64,000 nucleotides of DNA from an uncultured Clostridia bacterium (lineage in GTDB: Bacteria > Bacillota > Clostridia > TANB77 > CAG-508). A program made the position numbers and the translations under genes. The notes under the pieces were generated by a model. That model worked only from the letters and a program-made list of their open reading frames with translations, was not told the origin of the DNA and made no database searches. The stretch is taken from assembly GCA_944388735.1 (NCBI GenBank), contig CALXJX010000003.1:9111-73110 (forward strand). Reading direction: 5' to 3'. Numbering within the stretch: position 1 is the first letter of the stretch; each line of letters opens with the position of its first letter. Below are positions 5,076 to 55,071 of this stretch, in pieces.

Positions 5076-5661
5076 ATGTACGAAACATGGGAAGAACTAG
5101 AAAAATCAGTAGTTAATTGTAGTAAATGCAAATTGTGTAAAACAAGACAAAATATTGTATTTGGTGTAGGAAATAAAACTGCCGATGTCATGTTTATAGG
5201 AGAAGGCCCAGGGGCAGACGAGGATAGACTTCGGGGAACCTTTTGTTGGTCGTGCTGGAAAATTGATGAATATGGCATTTGAAATAGTAGGAATAAAAAG
5301 GGAAGAAGTATATATTGCAAACGTTGTGAAATGCAGACCACCAGCTAATAGAAACCCAGAGGATGATGAGGCAACGGCTTGTTTGGATTATTTGAGAAAT
5401 CAAGTTATTTTAGTAAAACCAAAAATAATTGTTCTTTTAGGAAGTGTAGCTTTAAAAAATATATTGGGAAAAGAATATGGAATTACAGCATCCAGAGGAA
5501 AGTGGATTGAAAAAAAAGGCATCAAATATATGCCAACATGGCATCCTGCAGCACTTTTGAGAGATGAAACTAAAAAAATTGATTTTATAAAGGACTTAAT
5601 GCTTGTAGTAGAAGAAAATGAAAGATGTAATAGTTCAGAAGTCAAAGGAGAAAAGGTATGA
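5076..5661 (+). CDS. Family-4 uracil-DNA glycosylase, frames joined at in-frame CGG 5232
   Basis: Track ORFs 5076..5282 and 5263..5661 form one protein: CSKCKLC, FIGEGPGADEDRL | GEPFVGRAGKL, VKCRPP, HPAALLR. The frames join exactly by skipping C5232. The last 11 codons lie inside repeat A1. Confidence 0.85.
5232..5235 (+). other. Putative +1 recoding site, CGG-G (ctt CGG gga -> ctt [c] GGG gaa)
   Basis: CGG is in frame 0, and frame 0 stops at 5280-5282. The +1 frame gives the invariant G of the G-x-PFVG-x-AG motif. Confidence 0.6.
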
Positions 5662-5845
5662 TTTCTTTCGCAATCTTCTCGGCTAGTTACATAAATTATA
5701 AATTCTAAGCTTTAAATAACCGAGCCTCTCGTTAATCACGCTTCCTCAGTTATTTAAAGCTAAGAATTTATACATTTATTTCACGTCACATTCGAAGCTA
5801 GCTCAAGAAATCATACCTTTTCCCCTTTGACTTCTGAACTGTTAC
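5627..5845 (+). mobile_element. Family-A palindromic MITE-like element, copy A1
   Basis: Its ~41-nt arms (gtaatagttcagaagtcaaaggagaaaaggtatgatttctt and its reverse complement) differ at 2 positions. The core is conserved: tcttctcggct...ataaattctaagc...aaccgagcctctcgttaatcacgcttcctcagtt...gctaagaatttat...cacattcgaagc. Confidence 0.8.
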
Positions 5846-6007
5846 AAAAAATTACACTAGGGAGTCAGTAGAATTGACTTATAGTAAACAAATAAAATTA
5901 TATTTAGAAAAAATATCAGCTAATATTTTTTAGTTAAATGAAGAGGTCTAGCATAACTATATACATAGGCTGTAAAGAAAAATTATAAAAAGAAAAGAGT
6001 TGTAAAA

Positions 6008-7294
6008 ATGAACAATCAAATAGAAGAAATAAAAGATATTAAAGAAAAAGCCAATTATTGTTTAAATTGTAAAGTAAAACCATGTTCATTAAAAGGATGT
6101 CCACTAGGAAACAATATCCCAGAAATAATACAAAAAGTAAAAAATGAAGAATATCTAGAAGCTTATAAAATACTTTCTGAAACAACAGTATTACCGGGAG
6201 TTTGCGGAAGAATATGTCCACATAAAAAACAATGCCAAGGTTCATGTGTAAGAGGCATAAAAGGAGAACCAGTTGATATTGGTTATATTGAGGCATTTGT
6301 ATTTGACGAGGTAACTAAAAAAGGATACGAATTGAAAGATGTCTTTAAAAATGAAAAAAAAGATGAAAAGTTAAAAAACAAGAAAGTAGCAATCATAGGA
6401 GGGGGACCATCAGCACTTACAGTTGCAGCTTTTTTAGCAAAAGAAGGAATACAAGTAACAATTTACGAAAGAAAAAGTTATCTAGGTGGATTACTAGTAT
6501 ATGGAATTCCAGAATTTAGATTACCAAAGAAAATTGTAGAGAAAACAATTAATAATATACTAGATTTAGGAATACAAGTAAATTTTAATAAAGAATTAGG
6601 TAAAAACTTAACACTTGAAGAACTAAACAAACAATGTGATAAAATATTTATTGGAATAGGTGCAAATGTATCAACAAAAATGGGAATAGAAGGAGAAAGT
6701 TTAGACGGAGTTTTTGGAGGAAATGAATTATTAGAATACAATATGCATCCAAATTATAAAGGTAAAAAAGTTGCAGTAATAGGTGGCGGAAATGTTGCTA
6801 TGGATTGTGCAAGAACAATAAAGAAAATGGGAGCACAAGAAGTTAAAGTAATATACAGAAGAGCAGAAGAACAAATGCCAGCAGAGCAAAAGGAAGTACA
6901 GGACGCTAAAAATGAAGGAATAGAATTTTTATTCCAAAATAATGTAGTTAGAATAATTGGAAAAGATAAAGTTGAAAAAGCCGAATTAATAAAAACAGAA
7001 TTAGTAAAAAAAGAAGGAGATTCAAGATTGTCCCCTGTAAATATACCAAATAGTAATTACATAATTGATATAGATTATATAGTTATGGCTTTGGGGTCTA
7101 AACCAGAAGAATATGTTAAAAATCTAGGACTAGAATTAAATAAATGGGGAAATATTTCAGTAAATGAGAGATATCAAACATCAATGAACAATGTGTATTC
7201 GGCTGGAGATATTGCAGGAGTAAAAGGAACAGTGGCTTGGGCAGCAAAGTCAGGAAGAGAAGCTGCTAAGTGCATTATAGAAGATTTAAAATAG
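6008..7294 (+). CDS. NAD(P)H-dependent Fe-S flavoprotein oxidoreductase, GltD/NfnB/PreT family
   Basis: 428 aa. It has N-terminal Cys clusters (CLNCKVKPC, CGRICPHKKQCQGSC) and two dinucleotide-binding motifs (IIGGGPSALT, VIGGGNVAMD). Confidence 0.75.
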   Translation: MNNQIEEIKDIKEKANYCLNCKVKPCSLKGCPLGNNIPEIIQKVKNEEYLEAYKILSETTVLPGVCGRICPHKKQCQGSCVRGIKGEPVDIGYIEAFVFDEVTKKGYELKDVFKNEKKDEKLKNKKVAIIGGGPSALTVAAFLAKEGIQVTIYERKSYLGGLLVYGIPEFRLPKKIVEKTINNILDLGIQVNFNKELGKNLTLEELNKQCDKIFIGIGANVSTKMGIEGESLDGVFGGNELLEYNMHPNYKGKKVAVIGGGNVAMDCARTIKKMGAQEVKVIYRRAEEQMPAEQKEVQDAKNEGIEFLFQNNVVRIIGKDKVEKAELIKTELVKKEGDSRLSPVNIPNSNYIIDIDYIVMALGSKPEEYVKNLGLELNKWGNISVNERYQTSMNNVYSAGDIAGVKGTVAWAAKSGREAAKCIIEDLK

Positions 7295-7435
7295 TGTGCC
7301 ATCGGGGACGTGTTTTTTTGGCACAAATAAAAATTTAAAATGCTAACAACATATCAAATTTTACTGATTTAGATATGACATTAGCATTTATTTTTTTTAT
7401 TTGTGCCAAAAAAACACGTCCCCAATGGCACACTA
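7292..7435. repeat. 144-bp palindrome (family C) between convergent genes; likely bidirectional terminator or MITE
   Basis: The arms tagtgtgccatcggggacgtgtttttttggcacaaataaaaa and tttttatttgtgccaaaaaaacacgtccccaatggcacacta have 1 mismatch. There is an inner hairpin aaatgctaa/ttagcattt. The outer TAG and CTA are the stop codons of both flanking genes. Confidence 0.7.
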
Positions 7436-53722: not shown

Positions 53723-53779
53723 AAATCTCGTTTCTTGAGAACTTTTTTCTTTATATAAAGTTCTCTCGAAGCGAGATTT
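53723..53779. terminator. Long bidirectional hairpin between mazF and the HD-GYP gene
   Basis: The 20-nt arms aaatctcgtttcttgagaac and gttctctcgaagcgagattt pair at 17/20. Confidence 0.6.
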
Positions 53780-53786
53780 AAATTTA

Positions 53787-54734
53787 TTATACTTTTAATT
53801 TTTTTATAATCTTAATTTCATGATATAAATTATCAACAATAGCTTTTCTTTTTTCATAAGCTTCAGTATATTCTTTATACAAACTCTGATAATTATCCAA
53901 AGTTTCGTTAGATTTTAGCAAAATTTTAATACCTTCTAAATAATAATTTTTAGTTTTTTCATCTTTAGCCTTTTCCATTTTTTCTCTATACTTTTCAATC
54001 TCTTTAAATCTTTTAATCTCTTCTTGTAAATGCTCAAGATAAGTTTGAGTACAATATATTTCGTATTCAATATCATCAATGACAACTTTAAATAAAGTTT
54101 TTACGATGATTGGATTATCTTTTCCCATTTTCGCATTTTCACTAATTTCTTGCAAGGCATCTGAATGTATATTATCAGTAGTTGGCTTAGTATTTTCAAT
54201 TAAAATTTTTAATGTGTCAGATATTCCAATATGTGATTTATACTGCCTTTTACTAACAATAGCATCATATTCGTCAGCGACACGAATAATTTGTCCTTCG
54301 TAAGGAATATCTTTTTTTGTCAGACCTTTTGGATAACCTGTTCCGTTTAAAGCTTCATGATGATAAATAGGACCTGCAGCATAAGGTCTTAATTTAGGAT
54401 CTTTCATACACATCTGATATCCAATAGTAGTGTGTGTTTTCATTATTTCATATTCTTCATCAGTAAGTCTAGAAGGTTTTTGTAATATAGAAGGTGGTAT
54501 AAATAATTTACCGATATCGTGAAGATATGCACATATTGTACAATATTCAACAAATCCTTTATTGCAATGCAAATATTCACATATTCTACATGTCAAATTT
54601 GCTACGTTTTCACAATGCTTTCTAGTAAATACATCTAATGTATCTAACATATTTAATTGATATCTCATTCTCTCATCTAAGTTGTATGATTTTAAGCTAG
54701 TAGAATCATAAAAATCAATTTCTGGTTCTGCCAT
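53787..54734 (-). CDS. HD-GYP domain protein (likely c-di-GMP phosphodiesterase)
   Basis: Motifs are HDIGKLFIP and HHEALNGTGYPKG. ATG 54734 is preferred over GTG 54743. Confidence 0.85.
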   Translation of the reverse strand: MAEPEIDFYDSTSLKSYNLDERMRYQLNMLDTLDVFTRKHCENVANLTCRICEYLHCNKGFVEYCTICAYLHDIGKLFIPPSILQKPSRLTDEEYEIMKTHTTIGYQMCMKDPKLRPYAAGPIYHHEALNGTGYPKGLTKKDIPYEGQIIRVADEYDAIVSKRQYKSHIGISDTLKILIENTKPTTDNIHSDALQEISENAKMGKDNPIIVKTLFKVVIDDIEYEIYCTQTYLEHLQEEIKRFKEIEKYREKMEKAKDEKTKNYYLEGIKILLKSNETLDNYQSLYKEYTEAYEKRKAIVDNLYHEIKIIKKLKV

Positions 54735-54864
54735 TTTTCTCACGATCCTTTCTTTATATATAAGGTTTAGCTTAAAGAAACGTCTTTTCTTACTCTAAAA
54801 CTATCATAACATGAAAAAAAAAAAACTGCAATAATATTTTTATTTAAAACTTTAGATCTAGGTA

Positions 54865-55071
54865 GTAACAATTCAGAGGTCAAGGAAAAATGATTTCTTG
54901 AAAAAGCTTCGAATGTGCCGTGGAATAGATGTATAAATTCTTAGCTTAAAATAACTGAGGAAGCGTGATTAACGAGAGGCTCGGTTATTTTAAGCTTAGA
55001 ATTTATAGTCTATGGAAAAAGCCGAGAAGATTTTGAAAGAAATCATTTTTCCTTGACCTCTGAATTATTAC
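54865..55071 (-). mobile_element. Family-A element, copy A9 (reverse orientation), with a 7/8 TSD
   Basis: The arms are gtaacaattcagaggtcaaggaaaaatgatttctt and its reverse complement, with 1 mismatch. The flanks are tctaggta (54857-54864) and tttaggta (55072-55079). Confidence 0.85.

Follow-up and report, generated by a model that had tools for sequence, protein, structure and literature searches.

Several kinds of short palindromic repeats are known from bacterial genomes. ERIC/IRU, Correia (NEMIS) and RPE are small, imperfectly palindromic MITEs (miniature inverted-repeat transposable elements); they lie between genes, form hairpins when transcribed and in some cases overlap gene ends. In the Bacillus cereus group, the ~150-bp MITE-like repeat bcr1 keeps a long double-stranded fold through compensatory base changes (Klevan 2007; Kristoffersen 2011, as presented in passages of PMC3184786). 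Here we describe Family A, a family of hairpin elements found in a 64-kb stretch of DNA (the window; positions 9,111 to 73,110 of contig CALXJX010000003.1) from an uncultured, gut-type Clostridia bacterium. According to the passages on bcr1, both repeats are MITE-like elements of Firmicutes that are flanked by direct repeats where they insert, vary in their genomic distribution and show compensatory changes. The bcr1 repeat differs in its 5-bp direct repeats and its unrelated sequence, and an invertible core and mirrored insertions or deletions (indels) in the arms are not mentioned for bcr1 in those passages. Family A and the ERIC, Correia and RPE elements are alike as small intergenic palindromes, some of which overlap gene ends, whereas Family A has hypervariable arms around a constant core. 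ERIC, Correia and RPE have other terminal inverted repeats (TIRs) and target-site duplications (TSDs; Correia duplicates TA), are shorter, and have copies that are alike over the whole length.

Matched arms are also known from other systems. In human Y-chromosome palindromes and plastid inverted repeats, the arms are kept identical via intramolecular recombination, and the spacer inverts. Work associated with Ripley, Lovett, and Bi and Liu reportedly describes the correction of quasipalindromes by template switching in E. coli. In contrast to the large palindromes, Family A has arms of only 30–46 bp inside a multi-copy mobile element, and its exchange pathway is one that we infer. Integron attC sites differ greatly in sequence between copies, are always self-complementary and have conserved unpaired or extrahelical positions. 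Unlike attC sites, which stand in tandem cassette arrays beside intI and recombine without a TSD, Family A lacks a cassette array, a neighbouring integron integrase and an R/L box consensus; the copies are dispersed singly between housekeeping genes, with TSDs, and so are not attC sites. The IS200/IS605-derived palindromic elements (PATE) and the REP sequences make no target duplication and are short (20–40 nt), GC-rich hairpins. Family A, with its 8-bp TSDs and AT-rich hairpins of 200 bp, does not belong to them. The closest systems by function are bcr1 and the palindromes homogenised by arm-to-arm conversion, and the closest by ancestry are the insertion sequences (ISs) of the IS66 family, ISBst12 group. 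To the known MITE pattern, Family A adds an invertible core and hypervariable, self-matching arms.

A 39-nt core probe (≤1 mismatch) matched the window at 5716, 8828, 12113 (minus strand), 30528, 31213, 37789 and 54950 (minus strand), and matched none of 100 shuffles of the window. Seven full copies and three clear fragments were identified (Table 1). An initial annotation of the window had listed seven full copies, each folding as one long hairpin, and these were borne out by the core probe, an inverted-repeat search and folding. The copy at 12027 is a long form of 347 bp instead of a short form of 200–220 bp, and in place of the four fragments listed, three clear ones and a 7-nt remnant were found. 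According to the inverted-repeat search, each window copy has outer arms of 46–58 nt that are 83–94% complementary, and also contains a 28-bp inner hairpin whose loop has 20 nt. Copy A2 folds as a single hairpin at −110.9 kcal/mol (shuffle mean −33.6; z = −19), and the opposite strand folds equally well. Between window copies, the core identity is 91–98% and the arm identity is 46–87%, which agrees with the annotated picture of a conserved core with variable, self-complementary arms. The hypervariable part is the middle of the arm. Five of the seven copies keep the outermost ~19 nt (GTAAYARTTCAGAGGTCAA) at each end, and in A5 a diverged relative of this terminus is present. We call these arms class I. 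Only A6 has a different arm, class II, the ends of which are also inverted; thus the arms of A6 are indeed unlike the others, and the remaining copies have related termini. The statement that Family A is the opposite of an ordinary MITE was too strong. The mid-arm is hypervariable as described, whereas the terminal TIR box is conserved, and the TIR, the 8-bp TSD and the insertion polymorphism are ordinary.

For the analysis of the arms, we used 15 full copies at distinct insertion sites from three related species, plus orthologous strain alleles and several deletion derivatives. The identity between the 15 copies is ~0.6 for the arms, near the floor for AT-rich sequence, and ~0.9 for the cores. 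In all 15 copies, the right arm that best matches the left arm, as reverse complement, is that of the same copy, and none of 100,000 permutations reached the observed mean. Excluding the 11 columns adjoining the core, the outer arms contain 541 Watson–Crick pairs, 8 G·T, 5 A·C, 3 transversion mismatches and 7 bulged bases (~96% paired). The arm length varies from 30 to 46 nt across copies, and the left and right arms of one copy differ by 3 nt at most. Therefore, the arm indels are mirrored, and they reach ~10 nt.

As a whole-element MAFFT alignment puts the arm gaps wrongly, the arms were analysed with pairing-aware scripts, and the covariation pair counter was applied only to the gap-free core. 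Pair types in the arms were counted by aligning the left arms alone and carrying the right arms via their own pairing; the counts depend both on this pairing and on how the left arms are aligned. At least two Watson–Crick pair types are seen in 21 of 40 columns of class I (at least 25 further types) and in 35 of 48 columns of class II (at least 60 further types). In the gap-free core, eight pairs are changed on both sides (27 cells), with a covariation score of 0.156 against 0.068 in shuffles; none of 500 shuffles reached the observed score, and slid controls were near zero.

The arms might instead fall into a few clonal subfamilies, or be cognate to different transposases, so that the complementarity is that of the TIRs of master copies. 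Two arm classes do exist, and A2 and A4 are close relatives. However, all 15 full copies have distinct arms, many columns of both classes contain several pair types, and A6 combines class II arms with a core 97% identical to that of A2, a class I copy. Since at least 85 pair-type changes affect both sides, a few clonal subfamilies without independent double changes, the pattern named in the initial annotation as contrary to its reading, cannot explain the arms. We regard this explanation as very unlikely.

The next evidence concerns events at single loci in contigs outside the window (numbered with L). In the LysM-CmpB spacer, L030 (3030–3245) and L031 (3093–3425), from assemblies with identical XerC, have identical 37-nt arms. 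When the long-form insert is set aside, their cores match at 136 of 137 positions as the reverse complement, and at 95 of 137 in the same orientation. A second flipped locus lies beside a GH30 gene in the same assemblies, and L036 agrees with L030. The orthologous copies of L032 and L031 differ by two arm substitutions, both compensated (AGG/CCT to AGA/TCT; ATC/GAT to ATT/AAT), and additionally by one single-base run-length change. By a rough estimate, two right-arm substitutions would fall at the exact partners with the complementary base with a chance of ~1e-4. The G·T and A·C mismatches (8 versus 5) show no strand bias, the wobble asymmetry being not significant, and the elements have no uniform orientation to the genes beside them (in 3′ positions, 8 co-oriented against 3 anti-oriented; not significant). 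The unbiased mismatches and the mixed orientation argue against selection on an RNA strand. Taken together, the core inversion, the compensation in place, the mirrored indels and the lack of strand bias point to exchange between the arms, which we favour, with moderate confidence, as the main cause of arm compensation. Arm-to-arm templated repair was one of three options offered in the initial annotation, and the core inversions at two loci, the compensated substitutions at the orthologous locus and the mirrored indels speak for it directly.

The L030 and L031 alleles show one further difference. A 137-nt long-form segment is present in one of them and missing from the other at the same locus, in sequence otherwise almost identical. 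Therefore, the long and short forms interconvert in place, or through conversion from another copy.

The arms could also be regenerated at each transposition: in a fold-back or hairpin intermediate, one arm would serve as the template for resynthesis of its partner, and copies would be born perfect and only decay in place. Perfect TSDs mostly go with perfect arms (A2, L020), and single-nucleotide polymorphisms (SNPs) that arose in situ between strains are uncompensated, as this idea predicts. However, the orthologous copies of L031 and L032 share the same site and flanks and still show two compensated changes, and the core flips occur in place. We know of no arm resynthesis step in IS66-family transposition. 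Regeneration is accordingly judged improbable.

A more serious rival, at least for part of the pattern, is selection on a folded single strand (RNA, or single-stranded DNA or a cruciform) without templating. The element would then act, or be mobilised, only when folded; its stems would have no demand on them but pairing, its loops would be read by sequence, and independent compensatory mutations would accumulate in the active lineages. Covariation is seen in the stems, in contrast to the unpaired loops and certain mismatches, which are kept, the core contains the eight double-changed pairs described above, and the three extra hairpins of the long form show compensated changes between A3L and L031. 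The compensatory changes of bcr1, as given in the passages of PMC3184786, are a precedent. On the other hand, mirrored multi-base indels are hard to obtain via independent mutation, the similar numbers of G·T and A·C favour no RNA strand, the gene orientation is mixed, and the core is invertible at its locus. Rfam gave no match over the whole window at gathering thresholds, and in E-value mode only spurious hairpin (miRNA) matches far below threshold. Hence the hairpin selection proposed in the initial annotation is partly upheld by the covarying stems with kept loops and mismatches, whereas the absent G·U strand bias and the inconsistent gene orientation oppose an RNA role. As the sole cause, we consider it rather unlikely.

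The exchange of arms in an IS66-type MITE has to be weighed against several observations that disfavour it. Strain-level arm SNPs are uncompensated: the A1 arm in the window has one G-to-A mismatch where the L017 allele is perfectly paired, and in the A5 orthologues of eight strain contigs the arms are invariant save one uncompensated SNP (L003). Since these recent single-arm changes are uncompensated, conversion is slow. No flip of A5 or A6 was seen among about ten strain contigs, and the flip evidence comes entirely from metagenome assemblies of different samples. The divergence of the arms, far higher than that of the core, is not explained by conversion alone. A tblastn search with an IS66-like transposase over 390 kb of collected sequence gave no match. 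Finally, a C·A mismatch of the inner stem is fixed in 11 of 13 copies, a TC/TC loop is present at the arm–core boundary, and large internal loops are found. As the fixed mismatches persist, either conversion misses them or selection opposes conversion.

The unpaired parts of the core, CTCGGCTTGCTCC, the flanks of the apical loop (GAGCCTCTCG...CGCTTCCTC) and TTCCACGGCACATTCG, are near-invariant over all copies and species. Because these conserved loops and mismatches exist only in a folded strand or a cruciform, some selection on the folded form is likely, most simply for mobilisation, and the unpaired core loops are probably under such selection. It is known that attC sites and the ends of IS608 are recognised as folded single strands. 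The folded form might even be the working form of Family A, either as a cruciform or single-stranded DNA hairpin recognised via its unpaired loops and fixed mismatches with a DDE-type 8-bp insertion, or as a functional folded transcript. If true, this would explain the freely varying stems, the class I and II termini on one core, and the survival of small mismatches. We offer this idea tentatively, and consider it unlikely.

The transposon identity of Family A was examined at the insertion sites. A4 is absent from the strain contigs L003 and L005, where the site is GATCACAAATTATC with a single copy of the duplicated bases; in the filled site, CACAAA lies on either side of the element. The comparison of strains suggested in the initial annotation thus yielded a clean empty site. 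The 8-bp TSD is perfect for A2, L020 (TAGACATT) and three copies of the related Family B described below, and is kept at 7 of 8 positions in A7 and 6 of 8 in A3L. For several class II copies the TSD is ambiguous, and the flanks are AT-rich. The TSDs enclose the whole hairpin, and both arm classes yield 8-bp duplications. The positions of the elements are intergenic or overlap the ends of genes, all six frames are interrupted by stops, and no transposase open reading frame (ORF) is present. According to the 8-bp TSDs and the clean empty site in other strains, we are highly confident that Family A consists of MITEs, that is, non-autonomous DNA transposons.

These sites also bear on the third option of the initial annotation, in which a mobile core was inserted into pre-existing, unrelated palindromes. 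The core is near-identical across arm classes, as would be expected from such insertions. However, all 11 TIR matches in the window flank A cores or the fragment F1, the empty A4 site lacks the arms as well as the core, the TSDs surround the whole hairpin, and most arms are mutually homologous. As the window contains no core-less class I palindrome and the empty site has no arms, the core was not dropped into older palindromes; we rate this option as extremely improbable. In a separate case, an 'empty' LysM-CmpB allele keeps the left outer arm, and it was considered that the outer arms had been copied from the host flank. This was rejected. Since the sister species and the conspecific contig L032 carry the full element, the allele is best read, from the sequences compared, as a deletion between CACT repeats. 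The locus is not present in the outgroup examined.

The termini connect Family A to the IS66 family. Class I ends have the form GTAAC...TTCAG, and class II ends are, for example, TTCATTTTCAGTATTTT (TTTCAG/TTTCTC...); a TTCAG-like box is common to both. An element annotated as 'IS66-like' on the Geobacillus kaustophilus plasmid pHTA426 has the end GTAACTATTCAGCCC, and its single ORF of 485 aa matches DDE_Tnp_IS66 (E = 2e-64) with an IS66 zinc finger. This end shares 12 of 12 terminal bases with an A right end in L004 (GTAACTATTCAG), and 10 of 12 with the A2 terminus (GTAACAGTTCAG). ISDge4, of the ISBst12 group of the IS66 family, has GTAACTGCTCAGCA and GTGACTACTCAGCA as its TIRs, with a direct repeat of 8 bp (PMC12898284). 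Family A has both features of an IS66 derivative, a TIR starting with GTAA and an 8-bp direct repeat, and has in common with ISDge4 and the pHTA426 element the terminal GTAAC(N2)TTCAG. It differs from the ISBst12-group elements in having no transposase gene, a length of 200–350 bp against ~1.6 kb, and similarity in the TIR only. Beyond the TIR, Families A and B were no more similar to the Geobacillus IS ends than shuffled controls were. To judge from the termini, a DDE transposase of the IS66 family, similar to the ISBst12 group, probably mobilises Family A in trans; as the 390 kb searched contain no IS66-type transposase, the autonomous partner can only be postulated.

As a whole, the evidence is accounted for best, and in our judgement probably correctly, by an IS66-type MITE with arms matched via exchange and with selected core loops. 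The element would consist of an IS66-type TIR, a variable stem, and an asymmetric conserved core with the 28-bp inner hairpin, and its insertion would duplicate 8 bp. The arms would interact as inverted repeats, through intramolecular recombination or replication template switching across the hairpin. Through such exchange, a substitution or indel in one arm would be either transferred to its partner or erased, and the core would now and then be flipped as a by-product. As a result, the arms would diverge between copies and stay matched within a copy. Only elements keeping the unpaired loops and the few fixed mismatches would propagate, and recombination between copies would homogenise the cores within a genome to some extent. 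The MITE anatomy, the TSDs, the empty site, the TIR likeness to IS66-like elements, the core inversion, the compensated changes in situ and the mirrored indels were observed, and we infer from them the conversion pathway, which transposase acts and what the core loops do.

The cores group by genome and not by arm class. The class II copy A6, so close in its core to the class I copy A2, is only 83–92% identical to other class II cores. Two chimeric copies were found: in L011 (616–800) the right arm of A6 is replaced, with MutS2 downstream, and in L017 (10444–10670) the right terminus of A2 is replaced, with rpsO downstream. Either the elements sit at strain rearrangement breakpoints, or L011 and L017 are assembly chimeras. 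As the chimeric copies show recombination between copies, the homogenisation of cores between copies is plausible. In L012 (3851–4700), a mntP-like gene lies between smc and the ATPase gene, with a right half-element to its left and a left half-element to its right. The whole cassette of this close relative is missing from the window at 35020–35113. Right halves starting at GAATTTATACAT recur in L012, L026 and L029, and their recurrence suggests that breaks occur preferentially where the inner hairpin has its base.

Table 1. Family A and Family B features of the window. Positions are those of the window; TSDs are given with their positions where available.
Feature	Position	Strand	Description	TSD
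F3 (fragment)	2991–3032	+	right core loop and inner arm	
A1	5627–5845	+	full short form, class I arms	
A2	8741–8955	+	full short form, 39/39 arms paired	GAATGTCG, perfect 8 bp; 8733–8740 and 8956–8963
A3L	12027–12373	−	347-bp long form, 36/36 arms	GACTGTTG/GACCGCTG (6/8)
F1 (fragment)	19841–19907	−	class I left arm and start of long-form core; TIR interrupted by Family B element	
B1	19908–20116	+	Family B MITE, termini GTTACTATTCACAGC, inserted in the TIR of F1	GAATTCTT, perfect 8 bp; 19900–19907 and 20117–20124
Terminal remnant, 7 nt	26723–26729		Family A end (TAGTTAC)	
A5	30443–30653	+	full short form, divergent class I arms (ACACGAGTTCAGTGG...)	
A6	31134–31333	+	full short form, class II arms (TATTTCTCGGTGAG...), 31/31 paired	
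A4	37700–37919	+	full short form, strain-polymorphic	CACAAA; 37694–37699 and 37920–37925
F2 (fragment)	39275–39325	+	right core loop and partial right arm	
B2	45796–46059	+	full Family B copy; core motifs common with the A core: CGGCT, GAGCCTCT, CACATTC	
A7	54865–55071	−	full short form	TACCTAAA/TACCTAGA (7/8)

Three genes of the window end in element sequence, which provides their last codons and stop codon. The AddB ORF ends at 3013 within F3, its last part (2991–3013) being element sequence, and the ORF of a family 4 uracil-DNA glycosylase (5263–5661) has its stop codon inside the left arm of A1, the element providing 5627–5661. The C-terminus of a P-type Ca-ATPase is altered by A4 (37700–37723), and the protein has 869 aa where A4 is inserted and 870 aa where it is absent. 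In A3L, the extra ~140 bases (roughly 12179–12318) lie in the internal loop of the left core and form three additional hairpins; inserts of this type, with the compensated hairpin changes, are also present in L001 and L031. An orthologue of A6 with identical arms was found in L012, from a relative whose ATPase is 96% identical. Upstream of a Transposase_31 (YhgA/Rpn-like) gene, some strains (L004, 300–540) have an A right half with a nested B element. In the window only the last 7 nt of this right half, the terminal remnant of Table 1, are kept, and the upstream gene is different.

Other functions were also considered. A protein-coding reading of the element was sought, and every frame was full of stops. 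In the class I left arms (window 8760–8800 and the equivalents), a GGAGG-like box is located 5–8 nt before the ATG of a 16-codon ORF (MISFKIFSACSIDYKF), and this box pairs with CCUCC of the right arm. Both are absent from class II, and the Shine–Dalgarno box and ORF are therefore probably incidental. A promoter scan of one region (A4–A6) detected no promoter-like match at the same place in different copies, and no U-tract follows the Family A hairpin that would suggest a terminator.

The window has a G+C content of 24–32% in 2-kb bins (mostly 25–30%) with a strong strand bias, and contains housekeeping genes for AddB of the Gram-positive type, LeuRS, topoisomerase III, Mfd, SMC and the P-type ATPase. 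Close homologues of its genes are found in metagenome assemblies only, the named ones being metagenome-assembled genomes (MAGs) of a 'Clostridia bacterium', and relatives of the organism carry Spo0A. In a scan of one genome per GTDB species, a core (apex) probe matched one contig only, L001 (CALXSB010000132.1), which is labelled as an uncultured Rickettsiales MAG. The XerC of L001 is 94–100% identical to the proteins of the metagenome series of the window and ~79% identical to Clostridia MAG proteins, and its genes (XerC, GH30) and repeats match the window lineage. Because its XerC matches this series, L001 was treated as coming from a sister species of the window organism, which the sequences suggest is probably the case; the Rickettsiales label is doubtful, the contig being probably misbinned or mislabelled. 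A right-core probe retrieved ten metagenome contigs, seven of them with full copies, and orthologous and new copies were also obtained from loci fetched via neighbouring proteins. The apex probe gave no match in IMG/VR and JGI metagenomes, and blastn of the long form gave none in PLSDB plasmids and INPHARED phages. In species with an ATPase 82–84% identical, no Family A was found in 20-kb syntenic loci. Family A is a new family, which is in no library searched and is confined to an uncultured lineage.

Family B copies are also present in L004 and L012, with termini GTTACTATTCACAGC and perfect 8-bp duplications, and the B arms show a compensated difference between copies. A third element type, in L016, combines B-type ends with another interior. 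With Family A, Family B and the L016 type, a superfamily of hairpin MITEs of the IS66 type is thus present in the lineage. Family B was inserted three times independently at positions 3–10 of an A-type TIR (window 19900–20124; L004 396–540; L012 8769–9046), with the TSDs GAATTCTT, GAATAGTT and AACAGTTC, respectively; the target in L012 is a degenerate A-like sequence only. It looks as if Family B targets sequences resembling its own TIR.

Three other kinds of repeat were observed in the window. A separate family with TTGGCA/TGCCAA and GGGACG/CGTCCC motifs is located at 7292–7435, 20265–20344 and 51440–51519, and also in the flanks of L028 and L029. One copy is a palindrome with 67-nt arms between convergent genes, and two copies lie immediately upstream of the start codons of mfd and of the ORF at 51521. 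A terminator-like hairpin of 42 nt (TTGAATAGGAAAAA...TTTTCCTATTCAA, followed by an A/T run) occurs twice, at 15980–16021 and 39228–39269. In-frame tandem repeats within ORFs are present at 59979–60136 and 9129–9298, with units of 18 nt (Ser-rich) and 51 nt.

Family A is a natural multi-copy case of short palindrome arms probably matched via intramolecular exchange in a bacterial transposon, with the expected by-product, spacer inversion, caught at two loci. With it, quasipalindrome correction and recombination between inverted repeats can be measured in nature at the level of sequence. Family A also indicates that covariation in a repeat family alone is no proof of a functional RNA. In its host lineage, Family A breaks metagenome assemblies, rewrites gene ends (AddB, uracil-DNA glycosylase and P-type ATPase) and marks rearrangement breakpoints. 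The conserved unpaired loops may serve as the surface recognised in IS66-family transposition, itself a poorly understood process.

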